Part shown: in pieces, positions 48,236-63,362 of the stretch | Layout: each line of letters opens with the position of its first letter | Numbering within the stretch: the stretch's first letter is position 1 | Assembly: GCA_965204175.1 (NCBI GenBank) | Contig: OZ241978.1 | Span: 3,814,164-3,878,163, forward strand | Direction: 5' to 3' | DNA: 64,000 nucleotides | Source of the DNA: Vicinamibacterales bacterium | Lineage (GTDB): Bacteria; Acidobacteriota; Vicinamibacteria; Vicinamibacterales; UBA8438 | Position numbers and translations under genes: made by a program | Notes under the pieces: generated by a model | Told to the model about the DNA's origin: nothing | Database searches by the model: none | Seen by the model: the letters and a program-made list of their open reading frames with translations, nothing else

Positions 48236-49825
48236 ATGAGCAACGTCTTGAGCAAAGAGAAACGACAACAGATCCTCGCGCTGGGACGCCTCGGCTGGTC
48301 GCTGCGGCGGATCGAAGAGGCCACCGGGGTCCGGCGCGAGACCGCCAGCAACTACCTGAAGGCGGCCGGTCTGACGGTGCGCGGCCGTGGCCGCCCTCCC
48401 GCTCGACCGGCAAATCCGGCCATTTCGCCGGAGGCGCCCACCGACTCTGCGCCAGCCTCCGAGGCCGGCAAGGGCACCGCCGCCGCATCCGTCCCCGCGC
48501 AACGGCCCAGTCGAGCACCACAGGCGAGCGCGTGCGAGCCCTACCGCGAGCTGATCGTCGACGCGCTCGGCCGCGGGCGCAACGCCATGGCCATCTGGCA
48601 GGACCTGGTCGATGACCACGGTTTCCCGGCGAGCTATACGAGCGTGCGGCGCTTCGTCTCGGCCGTTCGGCAGCAGCCCGCCGTCGGGGCTCGGGCGGTG
48701 ATCACCACCGATCCGGGAGAAGAAGCACAAGTCGACTACGGCGAGGGACCGATGGTCCGTGACCCCGACACCGGCAAGTACCGGCGGACACGGCTCTTCG
48801 TCCTCACCCTGGGCTATTCGCGCAAGGCCGTCCGGCTGCTGGTTCACCGCTCCAGCGCCCAGGTCTGGGCCGAGCTGCACGAGCGGGCGTTCCGCCGGCT
48901 GGGCGGCACCGTACGCGTCGTCGTCCTCGACAACCTCAAGGAGGGCGTCCTCAGCCCGGACATCTACGACCCGACGCTGAATCCGCTCTACCGCGACGTG
49001 CTCGCCCACTACGGCGTCGTCGCTCTGCCGTGCCGCGTCCGCGATCCCGATCGGAAGGGCAAAGTCGAAGCCAGCGTCGGCCACGCGAAGAGAACGCCCC
49101 TGCGCGGCCTCCGATTCGAGCGCCTCGACGACGGCCAGACGTACCTGGACCGCTGGGAGCAGCGCTGGGCCGACACCCGCATCCACGGCACGACCAAGCG
49201 CCAGGTCGCCGCCATGTTTGCCGAGGAGCGTCCGGCGCTCGGACCGCTGCCCATCGAGCCGTTCCGCTACTACCAGTACGGCCGCCGCACCGTGCATCTG
49301 GACGGTTGCGTCGAGGTCTCCTCGGCCTACTACTCGGCGCCGCCCGGCTGGATCGGACGCCGCGTCGACGTGCAGTGGGACGACATCCACGTCCGCCTCC
49401 TCGACCCGAGCACCGGCCAACTGCTGCGCGAGCACCTGCGTACAAGACGCGGCTGGCATCGCATCGCCGACGAAGACCGGCCCGCCCGCACCCCGCCGAA
49501 GACCCTCGCCCTGCTCGCCGCCGCCAAGCGCGCCGGGCCCGCCATCTCCGCCGTCTGCGACCACATCCACCGCCATGAGGGCGCCGCCGGCGTCCGCCGC
49601 ATCCTCGGTGTCCTCTCGCTCGCCAGGAAGCACGGTCCCGCCGTCGTCGAACACGCCGCCACCGCCGCGCTCGAACTCGGCGTGCCCACCTACCGCTTCC
49701 TGAAGCGCTACCTCGACCGCCACCCCGTCGCGCCGCCGCTGTCGTTGCGCCAGGTCGACCCGCTCATCCGCGAACTGACCGTCTACCGCGATCTGATCGA
49801 CCGCAGAACAGGAGACCCCTCATGA
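48236..49825 (+). CDS. istA: IS21-family transposase IstA (inner element)
   Basis: 529 aa. N-terminal HTH (KRQQILALGRLGWSLRRIEEATGVRRETASNYLK). DDE region (QVDYGEG...FVLTLGYSR...VVLDNLKEGV...RKGKVE). ATGA overlap with istB. Confidence 0.9.
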   Translation: MSNVLSKEKRQQILALGRLGWSLRRIEEATGVRRETASNYLKAAGLTVRGRGRPPARPANPAISPEAPTDSAPASEAGKGTAAASVPAQRPSRAPQASACEPYRELIVDALGRGRNAMAIWQDLVDDHGFPASYTSVRRFVSAVRQQPAVGARAVITTDPGEEAQVDYGEGPMVRDPDTGKYRRTRLFVLTLGYSRKAVRLLVHRSSAQVWAELHERAFRRLGGTVRVVVLDNLKEGVLSPDIYDPTLNPLYRDVLAHYGVVALPCRVRDPDRKGKVEASVGHAKRTPLRGLRFERLDDGQTYLDRWEQRWADTRIHGTTKRQVAAMFAEERPALGPLPIEPFRYYQYGRRTVHLDGCVEVSSAYYSAPPGWIGRRVDVQWDDIHVRLLDPSTGQLLREHLRTRRGWHRIADEDRPARTPPKTLALLAAAKRAGPAISAVCDHIHRHEGAAGVRRILGVLSLARKHGPAVVEHAATAALELGVPTYRFLKRYLDRHPVAPPLSLRQVDPLIRELTVYRDLIDRRTGDPS

Positions 49826-50583
49826 ATCTCGTCGAACTCGACAAGGCGCTGCGCAAGCTGCGCCTTTCCGGCATGGCAAACGTCCTCGAGACGCGCCTGC
49901 TGCAGGCCCAGACCGAGCAGATGGCACCGATCGACCTGCTCGCCGCGCTCGTCTCCGACGAGCTCCAGCGCCGCGAGGACCGCCTGCTCGCCCGACGACA
50001 CAAGCAGGCCCGATTCCGAGACCCCGACCGCTCGCTCGACGGCTTCGACTTCGCCTTCAACAAGAAGATCAACCGCGCACTCGTCTTCGAGCTCGCCACC
50101 GCACGCTTCGTCGCCCAACGCGAAGACGTCCTCCTCATCGGCCAACCCGGTACCGGGAAGAGTCACCTCGCCCAGGCCATCGGCCGCGCCGCCATCCAGC
50201 AGGGCTATCGCGTCCTCTACCGCGAAACGCACGCCTTCCTCGAAGAACTCGCCGAGGCGACGCTCGCCGAGACCCGCAAGGACTACCTCGCCGAGCTGGC
50301 CCGCGCGCACCTGCTCATCATCGACGACCTCGGCATGCGCAAGCTGCCCCACACCGCCGCCGAGGACCTGCTCGAGCTGATCATGCGCCGCTACGAGCGG
50401 GCCTCGACGATGCTCACCTCCAACCGCCCGGTCGACGAGTGGGGGAAGCTGCTCGGCGACACCGCCGCGGTCACCGCGCTGCTCGACCGGCTCCTGCATC
50501 ACGCCCACGTGCTCAAGTGCGGGCCGCGCAGCTGGCGCACCCGGGTGCGGACCACCTCGGTAGTGTCGACGGGAGGCGCGTAA
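49822..50583 (+). CDS. istB: IS21-family helper ATPase IstB (inner element)
   Basis: Walker A GQPGTGKSHLA, Walker B LLIIDDLG, and ...LLELIMRRYERASTMLTSNRPVDEWG as in IstB. Confidence 0.9.
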   Translation: MNLVELDKALRKLRLSGMANVLETRLLQAQTEQMAPIDLLAALVSDELQRREDRLLARRHKQARFRDPDRSLDGFDFAFNKKINRALVFELATARFVAQREDVLLIGQPGTGKSHLAQAIGRAAIQQGYRVLYRETHAFLEELAEATLAETRKDYLAELARAHLLIIDDLGMRKLPHTAAEDLLELIMRRYERASTMLTSNRPVDEWGKLLGDTAAVTALLDRLLHHAHVLKCGPRSWRTRVRTTSVVSTGGA

Positions 50584-51084
50584 CCGGTGGGGAGTCGGTG
50601 GCTCATCCGGCGCTTTCGCACCGGGCCGCAGTCCGAACCCCGTGGGCACGTTTCCTCCACCCGTGCTCCGGTAGCCGGCGTTGCGCTGGCGTCCGAAGGC
50701 GTCCGCAGCGTTCCGCCAGTTGCCCCGGCGTTGCAAAACGGAGCGGAGGATTCGCGCGCGGCCGAGCGTCAACGCCCCATCCGGACGGGGTCCGCACGCG
50801 CGATAGCGCCGCCTCCAGGCTCGCCTGACGCAACAACCGCCACGGATCGTCCCCACGGTCACCGCGTGCGCCAGACGAGCCTTCCGCGGCACTCGAGTGG
50901 TCGCTCGACGCAACGCCCTTTCCACTTCGTCGTCGTCGACCACACCGTCCAGCCCAGCCCGGCCGTTCCGTCTCGCGAGGGTACCCCGGCCGGGCATGAC
51001 CAACACCGACGTCCGGCTCGCCCAGCGGTGGGTCTGTCGCCACGCTTGCGCCTCGATCGCGCGGCCGACCGCTTCCCCCTCGCT

Positions 51085-51098
51085 CCGTTACGTAACGG
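51085..51098. promoter_or_regulatory. Perfect 14-bp palindrome CCGTTACGTAACGG, 14 nt upstream of the passenger ORF
   Basis: Read directly from 51085-51098. Any operator function is speculative. Confidence 0.25.
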
Positions 51099-51112
51099 TG
51101 TAGCATGGCCGT

Positions 51113-51403
51113 GTGGCGTTGACGAACGCGGAGCGGCAGGCACGTTACCGGGAGCGGCGCAAGGCCGGCGAATCCCGGATCCGGTACCGTCGGCCAGCGG
51201 ACCGGAGATCGCGGCCACAGCAGTGGAACGACGCCGTGCAGACGCTCCTGCAGTTGCAGGAACAGTACCGGGAGTGGCGGGACGCGTTGCCGGAATCGCT
51301 TGCCGGGTCCGCGACCGCAGCGTTGCTCGAGCAAGTCTGCGATCTGGATCTGTCGGTACTGGAGGCTGTCGAGCTGCCCAGAGGCTTCGGGCGTGACGGC
51401 TAG
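51113..51403 (+). CDS. Small hypothetical protein carried between istB and the right end of the inner IS21 (possible passenger gene)
   Basis: 96-aa GTG-initiated ORF (ALTNAERQARYRERRKAG...LPRGFGRDG) with protein-like composition. It is the only plausible ORF in the roughly 940 bp between istB and the right IR. Confidence 0.4.
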   Translation: MALTNAERQARYRERRKAGESRIRYRRPADRRSRPQQWNDAVQTLLQLQEQYREWRDALPESLAGSATAALLEQVCDLDLSVLEAVELPRGFGRDG

Positions 51404-51470
51404 CGCGCCGGCAAACACGTTGCCAACAGAGGACGCCGTGAAGTAGATCTCAACTCCAGTCTCGGGCCGC

Positions 51471-51523
51471 CGGAAATGGCCGGTTTTGAGGTGCCCACAA
51501 ATGGCCGGTTTTGACCCGTCCAT
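51471..51523 (+). repeat. Right terminal inverted repeat region of the inner IS21
   Basis: cggaaatggccggttttgaggtgcccacaaatggccggttttgacccgtccat is the reverse-complement match to 48136-48182. Confidence 0.8.
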
Positions 51524-52535
51524 TGAGGTGCTGCTGCCGCTGGCCGGCGCGGTCTCCCCGCGTACGGTGCGCCGCTACGTCGCGGCGCTGCGCAGGCGTG
51601 TCACGTCGAAGGAGGCCTTCGTGCACCGCAGCATGGCTCCGGGGACGACGATGGAGGTCGACTTCGGCGAGTCGTGGGTCGATATCGCCGGGGCGCCGTG
51701 CAAGGTGAAGTACCTGGTGGCGACGCTGCCGTTCTCGAATGCGTACTTTGCCAAGGCGTACCCGGTCGAACGGCTCGAGTCGCTGCTCGACGGCATCGAG
51801 TCGGCGTTCGCTTACTTTGGAGGCGTGGTGGAGCGCGTGGTCCTCGACAACACCTCGCTGGCGGTCAAGGACATCCTGGCCGGTCGGGACCGGGTGCAGA
51901 CCGAGGCGTTCGCGGCGTTCCGTGGCGCGTATCCGTTCCGGGCCGAGTTCTGCGCGCCGGCCAAGGGCTGGGAGAAGGGAAAGGTCGAATCGGGTGTGAA
52001 GTATCTCAAGCGGAATTTCCTGGCGGGCCGGCGATTTTGTGACGACCTCGACTTCAACGAACAGTTGCAGGAGTGGATGGCGACGGTGGCCGACGTGCGC
52101 GTGCACGGGACGACGCACGAGCGTCTGATTGACCGGTTCGCGCGGGAGCGTGACGCGCTGGTTCCGGCGCCGCCGGGCCGGGCGTTCCGACTCGAGGCGC
52201 CGCTGACGCGGGTGGTGGCGACCGACTACCTGGTCACCGTCGACACGAACCGCTACTCGGTGCCGTTCACGCTGATCGGCCAGCCGGTCGAGGTGATGCG
52301 ACGCAACGGCTTCCTGCAGATGCGGCACCGCGGCCGGCTCGTCGCCACCCACCCGGTGCTCGGCGGCCGGCACTAGCTCCGGATCCTGCCCGAGCACGGT
52401 CCGGGGCCGATCGCCCGCAATGCACGCGTGCGCTACTCGACGGGCGGGCGCTCGACCGAGGCGGTCCCGCTCGACGTCGAGATCCGCGACCTCGCCTGCT
52501 ACGAGACGGCCTACGGCCTCGGGGGTGCGCAATGA
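51524..52535 (+). pseudogene. istA: Outer IS21 istA, 3' part (DDE domain), carrying an additional in-frame TAG at 52374-52376
   Basis: ...VLLPLAGAVSPRTVRRYVAALRRR...MEVDFGES...VATLPFSNAY...VVLDNTSLAV...GWEKGKVES... is IstA-like. After the TAG the same frame continues (LRILPEHGP...[19 protein letters not shown]) to a TGA that overlaps the istB ATG, as in intact IS21 elements. Confidence 0.8.
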
Positions 52536-53308
52536 CGTCTCCGCAGATGGTCCGGCTCGACGAGCACCTGCAGCGGCTGCGCCTGCATACGGTCCGCGAG
52601 CGGCTCGAAGCGCTGCTGCAGGAAGCCACGAAGAAGGAGTTGTCGTATGCCGACTTCCTCGACGGCCTGTTGACCGAGGAGGTGTCGGCGAAGACCGCCA
52701 AGCACGTCACGATGCGGACGAACCTGGCGCGGTTCCCGTTCATCAAGGGGCTCGACAGCTTCGACTTCGGCTACCAGCCCTCGGTCGACCGGAAGCAGAT
52801 CCAGAAGCTGAGCCTGTGCCACTTCGTCGAGCACGGGGAGAACCTGGTCCTGCTCGGTCCACCCGGGGTCGGGAAAACTCATCTGGCCGTGGGTCTCGGG
52901 CTCAAGGCGATCGAGCACGGCTACCGGGTGCTGTTCACCACGGCCGCGGCGATGCTGACGACGCTGACCAAGGCGCTGAACGAGGGCCGCTTCGACGACA
53001 AGCTGAAGGTCTTCACGATTCCGCGGCTTCTCATCATCGACGAGATTGGGTATCTGCCGATCGACCGGCCGGCGGCGACGCTGTTCTTCCAACTCATCAG
53101 CCGGCGCTACGAGCGCGGGCCGATGATCCTGACCAGCAACCAGAGCTTCGGCAGCTGGGGCGACGTCTTCGGGGACCGGGTGATCGCCAGTGCGATCCTC
53201 GACCGGATCCTGCATCACGCGACGACGATCAGCATCCGGGGCGATTCGTATCGGCTGAAGGACAAGCTGAAGTCCGGGGTGGTCAAGCCGACGACAGCGG
53301 GAGCGTGA
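52532..53308 (+). CDS. istB: IS21-family helper ATPase IstB (outer element)
   Basis: Walker [12 protein letters not shown], Walker [10 protein letters not shown], and [25 protein letters not shown]; 258 aa. Confidence 0.9.
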
Positions 53309-53490
53309 GCGATGGGAGCCTGTGGACGCTGCCGGCGATGTGGACGCGCAGACGCGACCACATCGCCTTGGACAGGCCGCAGACGGCCTGCCCACAGCCC
53401 CCACAGGCACTCAACTTATCGATGTTTTCAACCAGGGGTGGGGGAATTTTCGATGACCGCGGGTGGGGGAATTTTGAATGACCGTTGACA

Positions 53491-53692
53491 TCCGTGGGCC
53501 GACCGTCCCGTCCGAGTGCTGCATCCTCCACTCCCGCGGCAGGTACTCCTTCACTGCCCGCCACGCATCCCATGAGAGGTCCCGCGCCAGATACGTCACA
53601 CCGAAGCCTCCGGACCCCAGCACGCACTCGATCTCAAGCTCGTCCAGGCGCATTCCGCTCGGCAGCTCCTCACCCTCACCCGCATCCGCCAT
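53491..53692 (-). pseudogene. 5' fragment (about 67 codons) of a second Hanks-type Ser/Thr kinase gene, truncated at the outer IS21 right end
   Basis: MADAGEGEELPSGMRLDELEIECVLGSGGFGVTYLARDLSWDAWRAVKEYLPREW..DGTVGP parallels residues 1-73 of the kinase at 53772-56390. Similarity stops at about 53490, where IS sequence begins. Confidence 0.75.
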
Positions 53693-53771: not shown

Positions 53772-56390
53772 TCAGTTCCGCGTGCTCACGGTTATCGTGT
53801 AAGTTCCGCCGCTACCTTCTCCGACAATATCAGGATCACCATCAAGATCCCTCGCCTCGATTAGATACCTTCCCGACACGGGGAGCCTCTCAAATAGGGC
53901 GCCGCCGAAAGACTGATTGATACTACGGCCTTCTGGCGACTTCAGCTCATAGGTCATTGCAATATCATCAGAAAATTCCACAAAAACTCTTTGTCCTGCA
54001 GTACCCTCGAAAGTCCAGACCTCGACTCCCGGCCCATCGATTCCACGGACGGGCGTGTCGAATGCGAGAGGGCGTGCAGCGCGCACAACTATCGTGTAGT
54101 CACCTCGGGGTCGTTCGTCCCAATCAATATCGACGACGTACCGTCCCGACAACGGTAGCGTCTCCACGATTGGGAGAATGGGAAACCCGTAAGCCAGGTA
54201 CCTTTCAGTCGGCGAGTGCAGGTGGAGTCGCGGGAAAAGGGAATCGCCGCCAACAACACTCACACTGATTGTTTGTCCCGCAGAACCTTCGAAAGTCCAA
54301 CCGTCTGTGCCTGGTCCACCGCGGGATGGCACGTTCAGAGCAAGGGATCCCCTCTCTGTCGTGCGGTTTGTCGTGCGGTCTGTCGTGCGGTCTGTCGTGC
54401 GCACGACGACTTCGTAGCTGCCTCCGACGGAGAGATTGTCCCCCGCAATGACGAAATAACGGCCAGACACGGGTAGTACTAGCTCAGAAGGCAATGCGGA
54501 ATAGTCGGGTGAAAGTAGGCCGCCGCCCTCCACGGTGATCGCTTGCCCTGCGACGCCCTCGAAAAACCAAACGTGTAGCGGCTCGCCGGGATTCCACCTG
54601 CCTCGCGATGGCGTACCCAAGGTGAGCGACGACATCGATCTCTCCTGGAACACAACCAAGCCGAACTCACTCGAATCGCTGCTCAATGCCCGCACGCTGA
54701 ACAGATATTGTCCAGATGCTGGCAAAGTTTGCCTCGTTTCCAGTACCCTATCCTGAGCGATGACTTCACCAACCGGCGACATTACTTGAATCGCGACGTT
54801 TTCGCCTCCCCCGCCCAGGAGCACGCTCTGTCCTGCCGTACCTTCAAAGGATCGGAGCACAGTAGCGGGCGCATCACCACCCACCGTGCCAGAGTTGGGT
54901 GGATCAGAGGGGGCCACGTTGGGCACAATGGGAGTAACGTTGCGTCCAAGGTCCCGGCGGAGCGCCGCTTCGCTCTCGCCGGTCAGATAGCCCGTTGCGG
55001 TGACGCTTTGCGCCGCCTGCCATTCCCGCAGCACCGCCCGCGTACCGGGTCCAAACATTCCGTCCAGTGGGCCGACGTCAAACCCGGCCGCCACCAGGGC
55101 CGCCTGAAGCAAACGCCGCTCGTTGCGGTCCAGTCCCAGCGCCTCCTCCTCCTCCTCCTCCGCAGCCGGCGAGAGTGCCTCCCGTGTCGGAGGCCGCTCG
55201 ACTACCGCTGCTTCTCTGTCGCTTTCCGGATCCGGCTCACGGACGGATCCACCACCCTCACCGTCGTCGATTCGATCGGCGTCGACCGCAACCGGCTCGC
55301 CACCTCCACTCGGCAGTGCCGTCTCGCCAGCCGAGGCTGTTTCCACCCGACCGCCTCGTTCTTCCAGAACCGCCCCATTCCGAGAACTCAGGGTCATGGC
55401 CAGCACCACGCCGACAATTCCGACGGCCGCCGCGCCGGCCAGCCACCACTGCCACGGCGACGCCGACGTTTCTCCTCGGGAAGAACCGCCTGGTTCGAGG
55501 GGCTTCCCCAAGATCGGACCCGGAGGGGCGTCCAGCAACCGCTGCCACGCCTCCAGATCCTGCGGGCGATCCTCCTGGTACACTGCCATCGCCGCGCCGA
55601 CCGCCGTCGCCAAACCGGAACTCACCTTCTGCGGCGCCACCTCCACCAGTGGCCGCAGCCGGTCTTCCTGGGTCCGCTCCGTAGCCGCTTTCGGCACCCC
55701 ACCGCTCAACGCGCAATAGGCCAGAGCCCCCAGGGCATAGATGTCCGTCCACGGTCCCTGACGATCGCCCGGCGGATACTGCTCAATCGGTGCGTATCCC
55801 GGCGTCAACACCGACGCCAGTGTGCCCGACTGCCCCCCCATCGCATGACGCGCCGCCCCGAAGTCAATCAGAACCGGCGAGCCATCTCGGCGCACCACCA
55901 CATTCGCTGGTTTGATGTCCCGATGCAGCAGTTCCGCCGCGTGAACCTCCTTCAGCCCCTCCGTCAACGCGTCCAGCACCTCCCGTACCCGATCCTCCGA
56001 GAGCGCACCCGCCGCCTCCACCTGCGACGCCAGCGTCCGCCCCTCCACGTATTCCATCACCATGTAGGCGGTTCCTAGCGCCTCGAACACTCGATGCACC
56101 TGCACGATGTGCGGGTGCTTGAAACGCGCCAGAATACGCGCCTCCTCCAGAAACCGCTCCAGGCCCCATTGATAGTCCTCGGCGTTGCCGCCCGTCCACG
56201 GACCTACCGTCCCGTCCTGCCGCCGAGTTCCCCACTCCCGCGGCAAGTACTCCTTCACCGCCCGCCACGTCTCCAGCGACAGATCCCGCGCCAGATACGT
56301 GATCCCGAAACCGCCCGAACCCAGCACCCGCTCGATCTCGAGCTCGTGCAGCCGCGTCCCCGGAGCCAGAGCGTCACCTGCGTTCGTCAT
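53772..56390 (-). CDS. Hanks-type Ser/Thr protein kinase, TM, peptidoglycan-binding domain and four PPC-like (pre-peptidase C-terminal-like) repeats
   Basis: Kinase motifs LGSGGFGITYLARD, AVKEY, HRDIKPANVV, DFGAAR and GYAPIEQ. TM WWLAGAAAVGIVGVVLAM. PG_binding_1-like LLQAALVAAGFDVGPLDGMFGPGTRAVLREWQ. Four repeats follow the pattern (W/S)FEG(T/S/V)AGQ...LP(A/V/L)SG(Q/R)Y...Y.(I/V)(V/T)V. AAGGAG SD upstream. Confidence 0.85.
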   Translation of the reverse strand: MTNAGDALAPGTRLHELEIERVLGSGGFGITYLARDLSLETWRAVKEYLPREWGTRRQDGTVGPWTGGNAEDYQWGLERFLEEARILARFKHPHIVQVHRVFEALGTAYMVMEYVEGRTLASQVEAAGALSEDRVREVLDALTEGLKEVHAAELLHRDIKPANVVVRRDGSPVLIDFGAARHAMGGQSGTLASVLTPGYAPIEQYPPGDRQGPWTDIYALGALAYCALSGGVPKAATERTQEDRLRPLVEVAPQKVSSGLATAVGAAMAVYQEDRPQDLEAWQRLLDAPPGPILGKPLEPGGSSRGETSASPWQWWLAGAAAVGIVGVVLAMTLSSRNGAVLEERGGRVETASAGETALPSGGGEPVAVDADRIDDGEGGGSVREPDPESDREAAVVERPPTREALSPAAEEEEEEALGLDRNERRLLQAALVAAGFDVGPLDGMFGPGTRAVLREWQAAQSVTATGYLTGESEAALRRDLGRNVTPIVPNVAPSDPPNSGTVGGDAPATVLRSFEGTAGQSVLLGGGGENVAIQVMSPVGEVIAQDRVLETRQTLPASGQYLFSVRALSSDSSEFGLVVFQERSMSSLTLGTPSRGRWNPGEPLHVWFFEGVAGQAITVEGGGLLSPDYSALPSELVLPVSGRYFVIAGDNLSVGGSYEVVVRTTDRTTDRTTNRTTERGSLALNVPSRGGPGTDGWTFEGSAGQTISVSVVGGDSLFPRLHLHSPTERYLAYGFPILPIVETLPLSGRYVVDIDWDERPRGDYTIVVRAARPLAFDTPVRGIDGPGVEVWTFEGTAGQRVFVEFSDDIAMTYELKSPEGRSINQSFGGALFERLPVSGRYLIEARDLDGDPDIVGEGSGGTYTITVSTRN
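54357..54404 (-). repeat. 12-nt tandem repeat (tgtcgtgcggtc x about 4) encoding TDRT/TNRT/TERG units between PPC repeats 2 and 3
   Basis: Read directly: tgtcgtgcggtt tgtcgtgcggtc tgtcgtgcggtc tgtcgtgcgcac. The protein reads RTTDRTTDRTTNRTTERG. Confidence 0.85.
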
Positions 56391-56406: not shown

Positions 56407-56838
56407 CTACTGCCGCCGCCGGGGTTCCTTCTGGATCAACTCTCCCGTCTCAGGAATCCGCTCCAGACCCTGGGCCAAATCCAGCACGTCTTCCCCAGCC
56501 GGCGGCGAGCCGGCATCGCCGTGACTCGCGTTGCCGTCGCCCGAGGGAGACGCAACATCGTGCGGACACCGCGCATCGAGCTGATCGACGCGCATCTCGT
56601 AGTCGCCGAAGCGGATGTGATCGGTCGGCTCGACCAATTGCTGACGGATCGCCCGCCAAGCGCCGCTGTTCAGCACGAACGTCCCGTTCGTCGTCGCGCA
56701 GTCGGTAACGTGCAGACGCCCGGCGGAAACCCGTACGACTTCCGCGTGCCGCCGGGACACGCTCGAATCGTCCAGCCGCACGTCGCACGATCTCTCTCGA
56801 CCCACGGTGTACGTTCTCACTCTCGACATCTCGTCCAC
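56407..56838 (-). CDS. Small FHA domain protein
   Basis: YTVGRERSCDVRLDDSSVSRRHAEVVRV..LHVTDCATTNGTFVL...IRFGDYEMRV is an FHA core. Start at 56838 (GTG) or 56829 (ATG). Confidence 0.85.
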   Translation of the reverse strand: MDEMSRVRTYTVGRERSCDVRLDDSSVSRRHAEVVRVSAGRLHVTDCATTNGTFVLNSGAWRAIRQQLVEPTDHIRFGDYEMRVDQLDARCPHDVASPSGDGNASHGDAGSPPAGEDVLDLAQGLERIPETGELIQKEPRRRQ

Positions 56839-56847
56839 CCTGGCCGC

Positions 56848-57708
56848 TTACAGGAGCGACAGCAGCAGGTTCACGGTGATGGAACCGCTGCTATCGCGCA
56901 CCAGCTGGCCGCGGCCGGCCGACGCCACGCGCTCCAGAAAGGAATCGGTCCGGGACAGACCGCGACCATTGTTCACCAGGACGGTAGACACCCGGCCATC
57001 CCCCGCTGCCGAAAACGACGCCGCTTCCGAGACAGCTTGCTCTACTTCCTCCCGATAGGCCGGGTTGTCGGTGATCAACACGATCACTCGCTGCTCCGCC
57101 GTCGAACGCCAGCTCATGCGGGTGGCTTCCCGCAATCCGAGAAGGAACGCCTCCGCCGCATCGGGATTTCCACCGCCACCCCTCCCTATGCGGATACTCA
57201 ATCCGTTGACGAAGCGCCGCAACGCGTCCTGTGCGCCGCCAGAATCGTTGATCTCCCGCAGATCGAAACTGGTAACGGGTCTGTCGTAGTCTCGATCGCC
57301 GAACGCCACCACCCCCACGCCCAAGCTTGGAGTCAAGCCGACCAGGAGCCGGCTCAACTGGTCGACCTCGGCCTTGAGACCGGCAATCTGCTCGCCCATG
57401 CTGCCGGTCACGTCGAGCGCGATGACCAGGTCCAGATGCGGAAAGCTCGCCGCGGGAGGGGCGGGAGGCGCCGGCGGACAGGGCGGGCAGGGCTCAGCTG
57501 GCGGGCAGGGCTCGGCCGGCGGGCAGGGCAAGACCGGCGGACACTCCGGTGGATCCGGCGCCGCCATGACCACGACCGGACTGCGGGCGGTGTTCGGAAA
57601 GTAGGGAAAGATGACGATCGCAATCAGGATGAACGCGCCGAGCGCCGACGCGAACAGGTCCAGCGCCGACATGCTGAAGATACTGATCTCGCGGTTTCGC
57701 TTCTTCAT
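56848..57708 (-). CDS. Membrane-anchored vWA domain protein with an ExbD/TolR-like N-terminal anchor and a Cys/Pro-rich linker
   Basis: MKKRNREISIFSMSALDLFASALGAFILIAIVIF is a basic N-terminus with an EI(S/N)I-like motif and a TM containing Asp. The linker is PECPPVLPCPPAEPCPPAEPCPPCPPAPPAPP. vWA MIDAS DLVIALDVTGSMG and a later VIVLITDNPA. Confidence 0.8.
   Translation of the reverse strand: MKKRNREISIFSMSALDLFASALGAFILIAIVIFPYFPNTARSPVVVMAAPDPPECPPVLPCPPAEPCPPAEPCPPCPPAPPAPPAASFPHLDLVIALDVTGSMGEQIAGLKAEVDQLSRLLVGLTPSLGVGVVAFGDRDYDRPVTSFDLREINDSGGAQDALRRFVNGLSIRIGRGGGGNPDAAEAFLLGLREATRMSWRSTAEQRVIVLITDNPAYREEVEQAVSEAASFSAAGDGRVSTVLVNNGRGLSRTDSFLERVASAGRGQLVRDSSGSITVNLLLSLL
57482..57535 (-). 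repeat. 18-nt tandem repeat (ggcgggcagggctcRgcY x3, with degenerate flanking copies) encoding the (A/V)(E/L)PCPP units
   Basis: Read directly at 57482-57499, 57500-57517 and 57518-57535. Confidence 0.85.
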
Positions 57709-57734
57709 GGTCGTACCCGTATCGGGTCGTCAGG

Positions 57735-59027
57735 TCAGGGCCGGACGGATTGCACCGCCAGCACCGGCAGGTCGCCGAGTTGGACGTCGTCGCCCGGAGC
57801 AATCGTCCGCGGCTTGAACGGTTCGAGCGCTACACCGTTGACGCGCGTGCCGTTGCTGGAATTTAGATCCTCGATGTAGAAGCGGCGACGTTCGCGCGTC
57901 ACGCGGGCGTGCCGACGGGAGATGGTGGGGTGGCCAACGACACTGTCCACGAGCGGCGCGTGGCTGCCGACCACGAACCCGCCGGCGCCCCGACCCAAGC
58001 CGGTGTCGCGTACCAGGATCTGCGGCGCCCCTTCGGCAGCCAGCACCAGCACCGGAGCGGCCGCGGAGTTAACTACCCTCGGCCCTGTAGCTGCACGACG
58101 GCGACCGGCCGGCCGACCCATATGGTGGCGGATGCTGGTCGACATCTTCTCCACGATCCGCACCACCTCCCGCCGCGGCTTGCGCAACGCCAGCAGCAGC
58201 GCCGGCAGCGCCACGGTACCGACGCCAACCGCCAGCCACAGCGCCCGGTTCGCGGCCGAGACGGCCGCGGCCGTCTCATCACCGAACGCACCCGCGGCAT
58301 CGGCTGCGGCTGCAGCAGCAGCGGCAGCCCGCGCCGCATCGTCATCACAAGGTGCATCCGTCGTATCGAGGCTGATGTCATCGAATCTGTCCAGCTCACG
58401 TACCGCCTCGGTGATGCGGGAAGCCATGAACATTCCCTGCGCCGACAGGAACCCCGCGGTGTTCACGCCGATGACGACGCCGCAGTCGTTGATCAGCGGC
58501 CCGCCGCTGTTGCCGGGATTGATGTCGGCGCTGTGTTGAATGATGTCCAGCTGCCGGCCGGCGCGTCCGTCCCAGGAGTTCGTGTGCAGACGCCCGATGA
58601 CGCCCTCGGTCGACGTCACATCGTCCGCCGGGCTGATCTGGTCGGCCACGCCCGGATACCCCAACGCCCATACCCTCTCGCGGGTCCGCAACTCCATCGT
58701 GCCGAGCGTGACCGGCGGCAGCGTCAGGCCGTCCACCTCCAGCACCGCCAAGTCCAGCGCCTCGGACGACCACGCGACCCGCGCACGCCGCCTTCCGCCG
58801 GTATGCGCCGATGCGACCTCAAACGTCGTCTGGCCGTCCACGACGTGCTGGTTGGTGAGTACCCACCCGGGCGCGACCACCGATCCGCTACCGGTGCCGC
58901 TGTCGCCGACGACCCGGACGACGCTCCGTTCCACGGCGTCGAGCGCCGTGGCGGGTTGGGCGACAGCCCACCCGCATGTCCAGGACAACGAGCATGCAAC
59001 GGTCGATGCAATCGCAACGCTTCGCAT
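57735..59027 (-). CDS. Trypsin-like serine protease (catalytic triad present), TM, C-terminal FHA domain
   Basis: Signal peptide MRSVAIASTVACSLSWTCGWAVAQ. Catalytic motifs: His in VLTNQHVV, Asp in LDLAVLEV, Ser in NPGNSGGPLIN. TM ALWLAVGVGTVALPALLLAL. FHA VVGHPTISRRHARVTRERRRFYIEDLNSSNGTRVNG. GAGGAAGGGG SD upstream. Confidence 0.85.
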   Translation of the reverse strand: MRSVAIASTVACSLSWTCGWAVAQPATALDAVERSVVRVVGDSGTGSGSVVAPGWVLTNQHVVDGQTTFEVASAHTGGRRRARVAWSSEALDLAVLEVDGLTLPPVTLGTMELRTRERVWALGYPGVADQISPADDVTSTEGVIGRLHTNSWDGRAGRQLDIIQHSADINPGNSGGPLINDCGVVIGVNTAGFLSAQGMFMASRITEAVRELDRFDDISLDTTDAPCDDDAARAAAAAAAAADAAGAFGDETAAAVSAANRALWLAVGVGTVALPALLLALRKPRREVVRIVEKMSTSIRHHMGRPAGRRRAATGPRVVNSAAAPVLVLAAEGAPQILVRDTGLGRGAGGFVVGSHAPLVDSVVGHPTISRRHARVTRERRRFYIEDLNSSNGTRVNGVALEPFKPRTIAPGDDVQLGDLPVLAVQSVRP

Positions 59028-59060
59028 GAACCCCTTCCTCTTCGGACTCTGCGGCGAACG

Positions 59061-60506
59061 TCAAACGTTGTCGCCGAGGCGGCCTGCTTCCGTAGCGTCG
59101 AGCGTCACGGTGAGCGTCAGGTCGCCCACCCGCAGCACGCCGCCGTGGCACAACGCGACGGCGGCGCCCGGCGTCAGACGAACGTCGTCGAGCGTCGTCC
59201 CATTCGTTGAATGCAGATCCTCTATGAACACTGCACTCTCGCGGGCAGACAGGCGGAAGTGTCGGCGGGACACCGCGGTATGGTCGAGTACCAAGGCGCT
59301 CTGGAACGGATTGCGCCCGACCACGGCGCCACCCGCGTCCGCGATGGCGCTGCCCGGGACGCGCACCGCGATCGGGTGACCTTCCGCATCGGCACCGTTG
59401 AGAAAGACCGACGGGACGGCGCTCGCCAGACGGTCCTGCGCAGCTCGATCGGCAAGATCCTCTTGCGCGGCTTGTGCCAGGGTCTCCGCCGTTACCTGCT
59501 CCTGCCGCGCCTTCGCAACCGAGCGCCGAGCGGCCAACCAGAACAGCATCCCGGCCGTTGCTACTCCAGCCGCACCCAGACCTGCCCACCGGAGGTACCG
59601 CGCCCTGTCCGCTGCCGCCCGCTCCTGCGCCTCGGCAGACTCTTCCTCCGCCAACCGTCGCGCTTCGACCGCCTCGGCGGCATCGACCTGCGCCGCCTCG
59701 GCTGTCGACTCGGCCTGTTCCCGCAGATCGGCCTCGGCGTCGGCCGCCGCTTCGGCCCGGCGTCGCCTTTCCGCCTCCGCCGCGGCGCGTCGCTCCGCAT
59801 CGGCGGCCGCCGCTTCGGCCACCGCAGCCCGCTCCGCATCGGACAGACAGGGCCTGTCAGCGGTGGTCGCTGCCAAGCCAACCGCGCTGAAGCGCGCGAG
59901 CAGCCACACCCCTGGCACGGCGCGATCGCTGCCGGAGGACGCCAGGTTCGGGTCGCGGTCGTCGACCACGACACCGATGATCTCGCCGCAGATATTGAGC
60001 AACGGCGCACCGAAGTTGCGCTGCCAGTCGTTGAACGCGTCGTGCCGAACGAACCCTGGATCGGATGTCGCTGCGCCAACCTCGACGGCTAGCACACGGC
60101 CGGGCACCAGCGCTATGGTCCCTGATCTCGCGTCGCGCGTGGCGGCATGGACTTCCTGCGGCTCCTGTGCCGAGACGCTTGCGAAGGGGTACGGAGGCGC
60201 GGGCAGGCCCGGTACAGCCAGCAACCCGAGACCCAGCCTCTCGTCGGCGGCCACGAGGCGTCCCTCATGCTCGGTTCCACCGACGTCGGTCACCACGAGG
60301 TTGGCGATGTCGGCGTCGATGCTCGTGATGACCTGCGCCTCGCCGGCGACGAAGCCGAGCCCCACGAGCGCGTCTGTCGTCCCCGCCGCATTCGCAGCGC
60401 GCACGACGACCACGCCGGCCACCGACGGCGTCTGCGCAGCCACCGGAGCCACGACCACACTGCCGGCCACCCACACGAGTAGGCCGGCCCGCAACATCGT
60501 CACCAT
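59061..60506 (-). CDS. Degenerate trypsin-like domain (triad apparently lost), Ala/Glu/Arg coiled-coil, TM, C-terminal FHA domain
   Basis: Signal peptide MLRAGLLVWVAGSVVVAPVAAQ. The protease-fold remnant has RNFGAPLLNICGEIIGVV in place of GNSGGPL, and no His or Asp at the aligned positions. Coiled coil AERAAVAEAAAADAERRAAAEAERRRRAEAAADAEADLREQAE.... TM WAGLGAAGVATAGMLFWLAA. FHA VVGRNP...VSRRHFRLSARESAVFIEDLHSTNGTTLDD. Start at 60506 (GGAGG SD) or 60608. Confidence 0.8.
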   Translation of the reverse strand: MVTMLRAGLLVWVAGSVVVAPVAAQTPSVAGVVVVRAANAAGTTDALVGLGFVAGEAQVITSIDADIANLVVTDVGGTEHEGRLVAADERLGLGLLAVPGLPAPPYPFASVSAQEPQEVHAATRDARSGTIALVPGRVLAVEVGAATSDPGFVRHDAFNDWQRNFGAPLLNICGEIIGVVVDDRDPNLASSGSDRAVPGVWLLARFSAVGLAATTADRPCLSDAERAAVAEAAAADAERRAAAEAERRRRAEAAADAEADLREQAESTAEAAQVDAAEAVEARRLAEEESAEAQERAAADRARYLRWAGLGAAGVATAGMLFWLAARRSVAKARQEQVTAETLAQAAQEDLADRAAQDRLASAVPSVFLNGADAEGHPIAVRVPGSAIADAGGAVVGRNPFQSALVLDHTAVSRRHFRLSARESAVFIEDLHSTNGTTLDDVRLTPGAAVALCHGGVLRVGDLTLTVTLDATEAGRLGDNV

Positions 60507-60611
60507 CCACCCTACCTCCGTGCTACAGGTAGTCTTCCGAGAGTTTCCGACGCCTCCTTGCTTGCCGTCCCAGGCACCCTGCGCTACGGAAGTCTCGTGC
60601 GTCACCACCTC

Positions 60612-61469
60612 CTATCGGGCGATTCGCCGCGTCGGCGCCGTGAGCCGTTCAAATCGGCGCCGTACGGCAGCCAGTGCAAGGTGTCGATAGACGATGACGC
60701 TGGCGTTGTCCTGCGACGGCCTGTCCGCCGCTGCTACGGCCTGCAAGAGACGCAACACCATCGCTTCAGCCGACCGCTGCCCGCTGCACAGGCACCGGAT
60801 CTGCTCCTGCGCAACGGTTTCGAGGCCGTCGCTTGCCAGCACGATCCGATCGCCGATTCCGAGCCGGACCGAGGCGCCATCGTCTACCAGCGCCAAGCCC
60901 TCGCCAGTCAGCGCGGACTGCAACTGGTGCGCCGCTCCCCCCCTTGCCTCCTCCGGCGTCATGCGACCAAGCCGTACCTGATTCTCCAGAACGGGCCGCA
61001 TCGAATGGTCCGCGTTCAGGCGGTCGATCCCGGCGTCTTCTCCGTCCACCCCTCCACGTACGCGCCACAGCGGTGAATCGCCCACGCTGATCCACTGCGC
61101 TGTCCCGTCGTCGGTCACGACGCACCCCACCAGGGTGCAGCCCATGCCTGCGTAGCGCGCATCGTCAGCCCCGCAGCGCCCGACCTCCGCATTGGCCACG
61201 TCAAGCGATGCGCGTAGCCGCGCGGTGATGCCGCCGCTCGCTTCCCGAAAGGTGTCGACGAAGGTCGACACGGCCAACTGGCTCGCTCGGGCGCCCCCCC
61301 GGTGCCCGCCCATGCCATCGGCCAGCACCAGCAGCAGATCGCAGCCGTCCGGGTCCGGGTCCCGGAATCCGATAGTCCAATAGTCGTCCTCCTGATAGTC
61401 ACGGGCGCCGGCAATCTGGCCGGCCGCGAGCAAGTGGTCGAAGCCCTGCAGCCCAACGGAATTCCGCAC
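60612..61469 (-). CDS. PP2C-family Ser/Thr protein phosphatase
   Basis: ARDYQEDDY, LLVLADGMGGHRGG, GCTLVG, ISVGDSPLW and VLASDGL motifs. The GTG start lies 1 nt after the upstream FHA gene's stop. Confidence 0.9.
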   Translation of the reverse strand: MRNSVGLQGFDHLLAAGQIAGARDYQEDDYWTIGFRDPDPDGCDLLLVLADGMGGHRGGARASQLAVSTFVDTFREASGGITARLRASLDVANAEVGRCGADDARYAGMGCTLVGCVVTDDGTAQWISVGDSPLWRVRGGVDGEDAGIDRLNADHSMRPVLENQVRLGRMTPEEARGGAAHQLQSALTGEGLALVDDGASVRLGIGDRIVLASDGLETVAQEQIRCLCSGQRSAEAMVLRLLQAVAAADRPSQDNASVIVYRHLALAAVRRRFERLTAPTRRIAR

Positions 61470-61470
61470 G

Positions 61471-62184
61471 TCAGTCCCCGTTCGATTCGTCTTCCCACGA
61501 GAAACCGGCGCCGCACAGCGGTACGAACCGGAGCACGGTGTTTCCCATCTGCACGTGCGTCAACGGCTCGATCTCGCGCGACTCCAACACCGGCTCGTCG
61601 CTGACGTAGGTGAGGTTCGTCCCGTCGCCGCTCTGGACGTAGAACTTCCGTCCGCGCGGTTCGTACGTGATCTTGCAGTGATTGGTCCGGGAGATCATTC
61701 GGTCGCCGTAGTCGAGCGACACCCGTTGCGTTCGGTCCCGGCCGATGGAGTTGATGCCAATCCCTAGCGTCGCAACATGACCCTTGCCCGGGCCCTCGAT
61801 GATCGTCAGCCAGCCGACCGGCGGATCGGCCATCGGATCGTCTTCGACCCGCACAGTGCGGGCCGCCGCCCCGGCGTCATCACCGCTACCTGCACCTTGT
61901 TGTCGATTGCCGTGGAATACCTCGGTGTGCCCTGAGTCCCGGCCTGGCGGATCCTGAACCCGCTTCTCGGTCGGGGCTCCGAAACGCCCGGCATCCCGGG
62001 GGGAGGTGCGTGGTGCGGTCGGGACGCCCTCGCGAACCCCGGTGGGCCTGGCGATGTCCGCCGTACGCCGGTTTGACCAACTCCCGCGCCCGCCGCCACC
62101 CACCTGATCGGTGGGTTCGGACCGCTCAACGAGCTCCGTGCTCTCGTCGATGATGTTGCCGTCCGCATTCCGCTCTAACGGCAT
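61471..62184 (-). CDS. FHA domain protein with a disordered Gly/Arg/Pro-rich N-terminal half
   Basis: GWLTIIEGPGKGHVATLGIGINSIGRDRTQRVSLDYGDRMISRTNHCKITYEPRGRKFYVQSGDGTNLTYVSDEPV is an FHA core. Start at MPLERN (62184) behind a GGGAGG SD. Confidence 0.8.
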   Translation of the reverse strand: MPLERNADGNIIDESTELVERSEPTDQVGGGGRGSWSNRRTADIARPTGVREGVPTAPRTSPRDAGRFGAPTEKRVQDPPGRDSGHTEVFHGNRQQGAGSGDDAGAAARTVRVEDDPMADPPVGWLTIIEGPGKGHVATLGIGINSIGRDRTQRVSLDYGDRMISRTNHCKITYEPRGRKFYVQSGDGTNLTYVSDEPVLESREIEPLTHVQMGNTVLRFVPLCGAGFSWEDESNGD

Positions 62185-62275
62185 GCCGTTCCTCCCTAGT
62201 GCGCGCGAACTCCTTACGCCGAAACCCCACCGCGCGCACGCGCCCTTCAGACCGGCTGCTCCCTGCACGGCGAGC

Positions 62276-63067
62276 CTATGTGGGCCGTTCGTAGAGGCGA
62301 TTGACGAGGTTCCTCAGGCAGTACAGCCCCACCCGGTTGAGCGCGCCCTCCTCGCGGCCCTGCACCACGTGCATCGCAAACATGAGCACCGCCGCCTGCA
62401 GCAGGGCGAGCAGCGTCGTATAGAACGCGACGCCGAGCTTGCCCGTCAGGCTCGTCATCAGTTCCGGCCCCAGCTCCGCCAGGTTCGCGTTCGGATCGAT
62501 GCCCGCGAACAGCTGGCCCGCGTCTCGCAGCGCGAACGCAATGCCAACGACCGTGCCGATGAAACCGAGCGTCGGAATCAGCCACACCAGGTACCGGAGC
62601 AGGTTGTAGCGCAGCTCTGTCTCGTGGTGGTAGAGCTCCATCGACGAGTTGAACATCGCGTTGACCTGGTCGACGGACCCGCTGCTCTGGAACTGGAGCA
62701 TGGCACCCGTCAACAGGCGCTGCAGCCAGTACTGCTCCTCCGCAGCCGATTGGCGCACGCGGCGGTAATAGGGGGCGATGTCCTCCTGGCGCAGGACGGT
62801 CTTGTCGTCTTCGGGAAGCAGACTTAGTCGGAGCTGATCTTCCTCCCTGTCCCCCACCCGATGGCGGACCAGCAACTCGCCCGCCGCCACGAAGAACACG
62901 ATCCACATCACGTTCTGGATCGTGAACGGATAGGTGAAGAGCTCTGTGTTCCGATCCAGGAGCAGATCGGCTGCATCGCTCTCGGCGGGCACCAGCAGCG
63001 ATAGAAGCCCTACCCAGACGAAACCGGCTACGAACGAACCGGTCAGCGTGACGACCGGCATGGGCAT
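62276..63067 (-). CDS. MotA/TolQ/ExbB-family proton-channel protein (4-TM MotA-like topology)
   Basis: LVWLIPTLGFIGTVVGIAFAL and LGVAFYTTLLALLQAAVLMFAMH correspond to the conserved C-terminal helix pair of MotA/ExbB/TolQ. There are two N-terminal TMs and a long cytoplasmic loop. ATG at 63067 behind a GGAGA SD; the ORF extends to 63115. Confidence 0.8.
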   Translation of the reverse strand: MPMPVVTLTGSFVAGFVWVGLLSLLVPAESDAADLLLDRNTELFTYPFTIQNVMWIVFFVAAGELLVRHRVGDREEDQLRLSLLPEDDKTVLRQEDIAPYYRRVRQSAAEEQYWLQRLLTGAMLQFQSSGSVDQVNAMFNSSMELYHHETELRYNLLRYLVWLIPTLGFIGTVVGIAFALRDAGQLFAGIDPNANLAELGPELMTSLTGKLGVAFYTTLLALLQAAVLMFAMHVVQGREEGALNRVGLYCLRNLVNRLYERPT

Positions 63068-63113: not shown

Positions 63114-63362
63114 AAGACGGGGCACCGCAGGTCGAAGTTCTGGCCTAACCAATTGCGGGTACTGATGACCGCCGCCGCCTACGTCCTGATGCAGCAAATG
63201 TGCCTGCGCGCCGCGCGCGCCCGCATCCAGGTGACGTGGCTGCACGACCGCCCGCTCAAGTTGGGCGCTCACGTCGCCGTCTCCGTCCGGCGCATCGTGT
63301 TGCACCTACTTCGCAGCACGCCGGACCGCGACGACTGGCAACGCATCGCCGTCGCTCTCGGC
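63114..63362 (+). pseudogene. 3'-terminal remnant of an IS1380-family transposase gene
   Basis: RSKFWPNQLRVLMTAAAYVLMQQM......IQVTWLHDRPLKLGAHVAVSVRRIVLHLLRSTPDRDDWQRIAVAL matches the conserved C-terminal block of IS1380-type DDE transposases (ANQ.RL.L...AY.L...LR.KLLK.GA.V..S.RR..L.L). No upstream catalytic part is present. Confidence 0.6.

Follow-up and report, generated by a model that had tools for sequence, protein, structure and literature searches.

The closest described counterpart of the system considered here is a family of transmembrane (TM)-tethered von Willebrand A (vWA) proteins that shows tight co-occurrence with tolQ and no tolR or exbD, reported in [quoted passage not shown] (Mol Biol Evol 2025; PMC12204202). 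Seeded from Idiomarina loihiensis, that family is described as occurring in Proteobacteria and Verrucomicrobia, in most cases as heterologous pairs, and has a TolR/ExbD-like trans-pore helix with a conserved Asp; AlphaFold3 models of a 5:2 complex place this helix in the pentamer, with a ring of Thr around the Asp (PMC12204202). Genes for FHA, PP2C, kinase, and protease proteins go unmentioned for it (PMC12204202). Here, we analyze an operon in a 64-kb stretch of DNA from a Vicinamibacterales bacterium (contig OZ241978.1; "the window" denotes this whole stretch), which encodes a MotA/ExbB/TolQ-like channel subunit, hereafter the MotA-like protein, and a membrane-anchored vWA protein among genes for phospho-signaling. 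The operon runs along the minus strand (63067 to 53772), and its eight genes are packed end to end at the locations given in an earlier reading of this DNA (the original prediction). We consider it probable that the MotA-like and vWA proteins are partners, and most likely they assemble into a single ion-driven complex of the MotAB/ExbBD/TolQR kind. The two proteins and the parts of the second are as follows.

62276-63067, minus strand: MotA/ExbB/TolQ-like channel subunit (PF01618, E 7.5e-8; 263 aa from the ATG at 63067)
56848-57708, minus strand: vWA protein, 286 residues (PF00092/PF13519)
57601-57708, minus strand: basic cytoplasmic tail (MKKRNRE) and proposed trans-pore helix of the vWA protein, residues 1-36 (helix 11-36 in the AlphaFold2 [AF2] model; Asp17 in SALDLFASALGAFILI..FP)
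57439-57600, minus strand: Cys/Pro-rich stalk of the vWA protein, residues 37-90 (CPP, CPPC, and CPPAEP repeats; predicted disordered)
56848-57438, minus strand: vWA domain, predicted periplasmic, residues 91-286 (PF00092, PF13519)

The pairing idea is already published as a prediction, and the original prediction, which the present analysis supports, rediscovers it independently. As in the motor of PMC12204202, an inner-membrane-tethered vWA protein has a tolQ/exbB-like neighbor and no tolR, exbD, or motB, a helix Asp is accompanied by pore threonines, and the functional proposal is the same, with the vWA protein as the dimeric partner inside the pentamer. The locus in the window differs in having a single vWA gene within a phospho-signaling operon, whereas the published cases are mostly heterologous pairs, and its family, which includes Gammaproteobacteria, is also found in Acidobacteriota, Gemmatimonadota, Rhodothermales, and Binatia. 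Members are present in Idiomarinaceae (L075 and L077, including Pseudidiomarina mangrovi and Idiomarina sp. UBA6142), and a tandem heterologous pair occurs in Alteromonas (L070). The name I. loihiensis was not found among the homologues listed, and orthology with the published seed could not be confirmed. The locus adds another member and extra context to the idea of PMC12204202 rather than a new principle. An operon of MotA-like, FHA, PP2C, kinase, and vWA genes was not found described in the searched literature, whose coverage leaves out most subscription journals, and neither was a portable helix with interchangeable heads.

[quoted passage not shown] They provide the best structural matches to the MotA-like protein, which keeps the TM2 motif P..G..GTV.GI and a TM3 threonine, and the Asp topology of the partner is shared. 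They differ in that the vWA partner has no PF02472 domain, in that the operon encodes no TonB- or TolA-like protein or SHLS-type helix, and in that ExbB Glu176 and its TolQ equivalent are Val or Ile in the MotA-like protein. The resemblance to MotA-MotB and PomA-PomB lies in an Asp-bearing helix whose periplasmic part tethers the complex beyond the membrane; however, the vWA protein has no MotB_plug or OmpA-like peptidoglycan-binding domain, the operon has no flagellar genes, and the MotA-like protein is of the ExbB three-TM type rather than the MotA four-TM type. Zorya ZorAB is likewise a MotAB-derived 5:2 complex put to nonflagellar use, and ZorA (8vvn) is among the structural matches. ZorB carries peptidoglycan-binding domains and a plug like those of MotB, and the long cytoplasmic tail of ZorA is absent from the MotA-like protein; the PADLOC models for ZorA and ZorB are unmatched by the MotA-like and vWA proteins.

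The Asp-bearing helix of the vWA protein

The N terminus of the vWA protein reads MKKRNREISIFSMSALDLFASALGAFILIAIVIFPY, exactly as quoted in the original prediction, and Asp17 (codon 57658-57660, minus strand) lies near the cytoplasmic end of its single membrane helix. The topology, with a basic N terminus and an Asp near the cytoplasmic end, is comparable to that of MotB (D32), ExbD (D25), and TolR (D23).

At least 866 homologues of the vWA protein were found, and the Asp-bearing helix (LDLFAS..GAF) is the most conserved section of the protein. The motif LDLF[AG]S with Asp17 is present in 120 of the 120 homologues listed. To this we add 84 loci. Four had been collected earlier, and 80 were fetched from GTDB genomes of Vicinamibacterales, Terriglobia, Bryobacterales, Longimicrobiales, Binatia, Rhodothermales, and numerous Gammaproteobacteria, many of them sponge associated. 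All 90 vWA copies in the 84 loci keep Asp17, with overall identity down to 33 to 45%, as do all 105 of the distant representatives with differing heads described below. The conservation of the membrane Asp among orthologues, on which the earlier reading depended, is therefore complete in each of the three sets.

The helix is also found apart from the vWA domain. A profile of residues 1 to 45 alone retrieved 1047 representative clusters at E ≤ 1e-3 out of 1.84 billion proteins, and in 146 of the 150 hits listed the match begins no later than the fifth residue. About half of the 105 full-length representatives carry a vWA domain. In most others, a coiled coil leads to a DUF2135-like beta domain, and the heads of a few are of different kinds; another vWA type also occurs fused to the same N-terminal helix. 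Mean column identity across the 105 is 12%, and the seven invariant columns (F, D, F, A, G, F, and P) are all in the N-terminal segment. Two nonstandard members were checked (L090 and L091), and both adjoin MotA_ExbB and FHA genes. As the head is swapped beside MotA-like genes, the MotA-like protein is tied to the helix rather than to the vWA domain, and among the comparative arguments for direct pairing of helix and channel we give this pattern the most weight.

Paralogues of the DUF2135-like type were noted at L010 (9114-9884) and L090 (553-1326). They have the motif DVDLHV..P.G.E.YY...GPGNE.W and a coiled coil and no vWA domain, and the one in L010 directly adjoins a vWA copy.

The MotA-like channel subunit

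The MotA-like protein scores 32.6 bits against PF01618, for which the curated cutoff is 22.9. Its open reading frame (ORF) can be extended to a TTG at 63115, and the public gene call is the 263-aa form that begins at 63067. The AF2 model (mean pLDDT [predicted local distance difference test score] of 84.4) begins with a signal-like helix and has three long TM helices as well as a cytoplasmic domain built of helices. The best Foldseek matches of this model in the PDB are ExbB (9ddo and 5sv0), TolQ, ZorA (8vvn), and MotA, and the top ~40 are exclusively ExbB, TolQ, MotA, or ZorA.

Homologues of the MotA-like protein number more than 1300. Their invariant motifs are WLIPTLGFIGTV.GI in TM2, which pairs with SPYIGLFGTVWGI of TolQ and SPFVGLFGTVWGI of ExbB in both MAFFT and hhalign alignments, and LGVAF.TTLLAL in TM3. 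Three pore threonines, T172, T217, and T218, are invariant. T172 (GT172V, in TM2) falls at the position of TolQ T145 and ExbB T148 in the hhalign and MAFFT alignments, and T217/T218 (in TM3) fall at that of TolQ T178 and ExbB T181 by MAFFT only (AF.TTLLAL versus AEALIATAIGL). A near-invariant Thr90 in the LLPEDDxT loop might be a phospho-site and is mentioned as a candidate.

Co-occurrence of the two genes without a conventional partner

In 71 of the 84 loci, a MotA-like gene occurs no more than 10 kb from the vWA gene, and 5 of the 13 others are cut by contig ends. No homologue of ExbD, TolR, or MotB was detected by phmmer within that distance in any of the 84, and the Pfam labels of six neighborhoods (L001 to L004, L088, and L089) include none. 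The operons are packed too tightly to conceal a partner gene. The same holds for the operon in the window: none of its genes has a Pfam match to ExbD, MotB_plug, or OmpA, and a phmmer search with Escherichia coli ExbD, TolR, and MotB against all ORFs of ≥30 aa in the window gave a best E value of only 0.5. Acidic residues are absent from the sequences of the remaining TM helices of the operon. The observation that the operon has a MotA/ExbB-like gene and no MotB, ExbD, or TolR gene is thus borne out, and the combination recurs in other genomes.

The commonest gene order is FHA, MotA-like, FHA, PP2C, trypsin-fold-FHA, vWA, and kinase, and the vWA gene is usually three to four genes from the MotA-like gene. 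Two vWA copies are present in 6 of the 84 loci (L010, L035, L061, L067, L070, and L074), and one is present in the window. A minimal form is found in Longimicrobiales, where vWA and MotA-like genes, often adjacent, are accompanied by a PG_binding_1 kinase or by PG_binding_1/LRR proteins; even in these minimal loci, a kinase or PG_binding_1 protein is present beside the pair.

The minimal Longimicrobiales pairs (L003, 11892-12728; L016, 13400-20545; L001, 1-9912) are mostly from metagenome-assembled genomes of sponge-associated bacteria. The genes around them encode LRR, PG_binding_1+LRR, and CarboxypepD_reg proteins and a 1444-aa LRR/Big_2/Peptidase_M66 protein.

Points against the proposed pairing

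Several results weigh against the pairing. The original prediction had seen a TolR/ExbD look in the membrane anchor, and profile comparison does not bear this out. Pfam found no ExbD/TolR (PF02472) or MotB family in residues 1 to 55 of the vWA protein even at E ≤ 10, and the helix profile (residues 1 to 45) matched no ExbD, TolR, MotB, PomB, or ZorB chain in the PDB at the same threshold. In hmmsearch with filters off, MotB scored -1.6 bits and ranked 206th among 1907 background ORFs; the scores of TolR and ExbD were lower still (ranks 566 and 1141 of 1907). With hhalign, no alignment of the helix to TolR or ExbD was returned, and the alignment to E. coli MotB had an E value of 0.084 and a probability of 0.7%, running TM to TM with the Asp one position off register. 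The MotB TM segment (FASALGAFIL versus FMTAMMAFFL) is the nearest match of the helix and is not significant. Other adverse results come from the genomic comparison and the channel itself. In eight full-length loci, no MotA-like gene was found within 10 kb. A covariation between vWA positions 22 and 23 (A22-L23 or G-M) and MotA-like positions 216 and 224 (Y216/Q224 or N/M) tracks phylogeny and has exceptions, and for that reason it was dropped as evidence of pairing. Lastly, an hmmsearch of PDB sequences with the MotA-like profile matched no ExbB, TolQ, or MotA, so that the family link of the MotA-like protein rests on Pfam, hhalign, and Foldseek, and the subfamily must be highly divergent.

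With all profile tests negative, membership of the vWA protein in the ExbD/TolR or MotB families was rejected, and homology of the helix to these proteins is unproven. As there is no detectable sequence similarity, the case for pairing is built on the topology, on the Asp, and on the genomic context, not on homology.

The top PDB profile hits of the helix were insect odorant co-receptor Orco channels (LDLFASxLGA; E 0.18), a likeness that is almost certainly due to chance.

Stalk and head of the vWA protein

The periplasmic part of the vWA protein is a vWA domain by AF2 and Foldseek, and an ExbD/TolR-fold periplasmic domain is not present. The AF2 model has a mean pLDDT of 80.6; values are below 50 at residues 37 to 49, secondary structure is absent up to residue 91, and the vWA domain is mostly above 85. 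Foldseek matches of this domain include the integrin beta-I domain, CMG2/TEM8, and the SpaC pilus adhesin (E ~1e-8), and the residues of the metal-ion-dependent adhesion site are conserved (D99-x-T101-x-S103 ... T213-D214). The basic N terminus points to a periplasmic location of the head. With neither a PF02472 nor an OmpA domain detected, the idea that a stalk and a vWA domain stand in place of the usual periplasmic domain of a stator or ExbD agrees with the models.

The stalk is variable in length across homologues, and many have a coiled coil in its place, a long one that directly follows the helix. The number of Cys residues is even in 151 of 155 Cys/Pro stalks of homologues, mostly as CPxCP or CPPC pairs, which suggests disulfide or metal pairing in the periplasm. 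Together, the coiled coils and the paired Cys residues of the stalk would fit a parallel dimer.

In relatives, vWA and FHA domains also occur on one polypeptide, as in the vWA-FHA fusion P0081 (393 aa) and in a separate 458-aa VWA+FHA protein (L091, 7264-8640). These polypeptides hint at direct vWA-FHA coupling, or they may be fusions produced by gene calling.

Phospho-signaling genes of the operon

The other six genes of the operon and the elements that flank it are as follows.

61471-62268, minus strand: cytoplasmic FHA protein with a low-complexity N-terminal half and a C-terminal FHA domain (PF00498, E 1.5e-6)
60612-61469, minus strand: PP2C-type Ser/Thr phosphatase (PF13672, E 3.7e-9; NCBIfam Stp1_PP2C_phos, E 6e-30)
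59061-60608, minus strand: bitopic adaptor with a periplasmic trypsin-fold domain, one TM helix, and a cytoplasmic FHA domain (Trypsin_2, E 6e-8; FHA, E 1.2e-13)
57735-59027, minus strand: bitopic HtrA-like serine protease with a periplasmic trypsin domain, one TM helix, and a cytoplasmic FHA domain (Trypsin_2, E 1.5e-26; FHA, E 4.8e-17)
56407-56838, minus strand: small cytoplasmic FHA protein (PF00498, E 6e-15; NCBIfam gliding_GltG, E 1.7e-7)
53772-56390, minus strand: Ser/Thr kinase with one TM helix and a periplasmic part of PG_binding_1 and repeated beta-rich modules (Pkinase, E 3e-33; PG_binding_1, E 1.5e-10)
~63132-63347, plus strand: C-terminal remnant of an IS1380-type (DDE_Tnp_1_4) transposase (PF13701 positions 351 to 426 of 435, E 2e-9)
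48236-50583 and ~50587-53308, plus strand: IS21-family elements in tandem, just downstream of the operon (istA-like rve/Mu-transposase C terminus and IstB ATPase)

Homologues of the FHA protein at 61471-62268 are found in 45 of the 84 loci and directly follow the MotA-like gene in almost all loci that have both; the small FHA gene, of the type at 56407-56838, is just upstream of the MotA-like gene in most other loci. The two trypsin-fold proteins appear to differ in function. In the candidate pseudoprotease at 59061-60608, the Ser and His catalytic motifs are gone, as they are in 44 of 47 orthologues, and for this reason this trypsin-fold protein, encoded near the vWA gene, probably binds rather than cleaves. 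The protease at 57735-59027 retains the VLTNQHV and GNSGGP motifs and looks active.

Two described systems combine similar genes. In the Agl-Glt machinery of Myxococcus xanthus (AglRQS, GltG/GltJ, and CglB), a TolQR-type motor is found together with FHA proteins and a vWA adhesin, and a structural model predicts an FHA domain on the cytoplasmic face of the TolQ-like pentamer (PMC11761067). The small FHA protein in the window matches the GltG model of NCBIfam, as listed above. However, Agl has a normal TolR-like AglQ/AglS, its vWA protein CglB is an outer membrane lipoprotein and not a pore partner, and the operon in the window has no Glt genes. The TerY-P triad consists of a vWA protein, a PP2C phosphatase, and a Ser/Thr kinase that ends in a zinc ribbon or OB fold, according to a summary of Anantharaman et al. 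2012 (PMC11090510), and the TerY-type vWA protein is not described there as membrane tethered. The likeness is that vWA, PP2C, and Ser/Thr kinase genes share one operon, often with FHA proteins. TerY-type vWA proteins are soluble and cytoplasmic, whereas the vWA protein in the window is membrane anchored and predicted to be periplasmic; the kinase here combines a TM helix with PG_binding_1, and the core includes a MotA-like gene.

Proposed complex

Building on the domain content, folds, helix and Asp invariance, synteny, and absence of ExbD/TolR/MotB genes described above, we infer a physical complex of 5:2 stoichiometry, in which five MotA-like subunits would ring two copies of the N-terminal helix of the vWA protein. 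Asp17, near the cytoplasmic end of the pore and close to the TM2 and TM3 threonines, would bind and release protons, and their flow would make the pentamer turn or shift with respect to the dimer. The stalk and the vWA head with its intact metal site would substitute for the periplasmic domain of MotB, ExbD, or TolR. The metal site may bind a periplasmic or outer membrane protein as its ligand, either for anchoring (stator mode) or for pulling (Ton mode). The kinase, with its peptidoglycan-binding ectodomain, the PP2C phosphatase, and the four FHA domains could provide control, with phosphorylation governing docking at the pentamer's cytoplasmic face. The output may be force, anchoring, or a gated leak.

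Alternative explanations

The pair could instead be a gated proton-leak or signaling effector, in which surveillance by the kinase, FHA, and PP2C proteins opens the channel and depolarizes the cell, for example upon phage infection or envelope damage, with the vWA head as sensor or latch. We think this unlikely. In its favor, mobile elements flank the operon (in the window, two IS21 copies and the IS1380-type remnant; in L088 and L089, integrases and transposases), the L088 kinase with its FGE-sulfatase domain is next to bAvd and a reverse transcriptase in a retroelement layout, the operon kinase matches PADLOC kinase models, and triads of vWA, PP2C, and kinase (TerY-P) are tied to defense systems (PMC11090510). 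However, the contexts of many loci are ordinary chromosomal ones, and an intact adhesion site, long stalks, and coiled coils suit a mechanical link at least equally well. The PADLOC matches are limited to generic kinase and protease models, with no model matching the MotA-like, vWA, or PP2C protein, either soluble FHA protein, or the pseudoprotease at 59061-60608, and hence no defense assignment is made.

Two further explanations would dispense with the vWA helix as a pore partner. The helix may be a mere anchor, conserved for contacts with the kinase, the trypsin-FHA proteins, lipid, or a metal, with the MotA-like protein acting alone or borrowing a housekeeping TolR or ExbD. The lack of detectable homology to ExbD, TolR, or MotB and the eight full-length loci that have no MotA-like gene nearby would be explained in this way, but at least 13 helix residues are invariant across phyla while the head is at 33% identity, which is not expected of an anchor, and the pore threonines are invariant, which is relevant only with an Asp-bearing helix inside. 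Moreover, the minimal loci keep vWA and MotA-like neighbors and have no trypsin-FHA genes, and the MotA-like neighbor is retained after a head swap. We therefore regard a mere anchor as improbable. A partner lost from the operon is far less probable still. The original prediction had raised the possibility that a MotB, ExbD, or TolR gene once lay upstream and was deleted by the IS1380-type insertion, leaving a damaged copy, and the transposase remnant does abut the start of the MotA-like gene. Yet the closest relatives (L088 and L089), whose MotA-like proteins are 81 to 82% identical to that in the window, have the identical set of eight genes with the MotA-like gene first and only a spurious ORF or integrases upstream; in other phyla, an FHA gene or kinase is upstream, never ExbD or MotB. 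Since the intact relatives begin with the MotA-like gene, the IS1380-type remnant removed no partner, and it is the boundary of the operon and outside the system. A 319-aa ORF upstream in L088 was considered as a hidden partner and rejected, as its translation is Arg/Pro-rich noise.

Implications

If the vWA protein is the pore partner of the MotA-like protein, the MotAB/ExbBD/TolQR design can work without a partner of the MotB/ExbD/TolR fold: a short Asp-bearing helix would suffice, unrelated periplasmic heads would be possible, and proton-driven 5:2 motors would have a wider range of uses. The system is widespread (~1000 helix clusters and more than 1300 MotA-like homologues) and simple. The linked kinase, phosphatase, and FHA genes suggest that such motors may be switched on and off, which we did not find described in the searched literature. 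A broader reading, which we offer tentatively and consider possible rather than likely, would join these points. The Asp helix would be a portable "motor plug-in" with interchangeable heads (two vWA types and the DUF2135-like type) that always works with one dedicated ExbB-like pentamer, and the machine would be switched by eukaryote-like Ser/Thr phosphorylation via FHA docking. It would then be the first 5:2 ion motor with gating by a kinase/phosphatase pair and might have a role in envelope surveillance, adhesion, or defense in sponge-associated and marine bacteria.

Flanking elements and kinase-associated observations

Insertion sequences (IS) bracket the operon, with the IS1380-type remnant upstream and the two IS21 copies downstream. 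A 93-aa fragment at 53411-53692 (minus strand), beside the IS21 element at 51486-53308 (plus strand), duplicates the N terminus of the Ser/Thr kinase (E 3e-25 versus the operon kinase) and looks like a second kinase gene severed by the IS21 insertion. Two or more kinases downstream are common in relatives. In L088 (16697-20184), the operon kinase carries PG_binding_1 and FGE-sulfatase domains and is directly followed by bAvd and a reverse transcriptase (RVT_1). This cassette has the layout of a diversity-generating retroelement, which could diversify the periplasmic sensor domain of the kinase.

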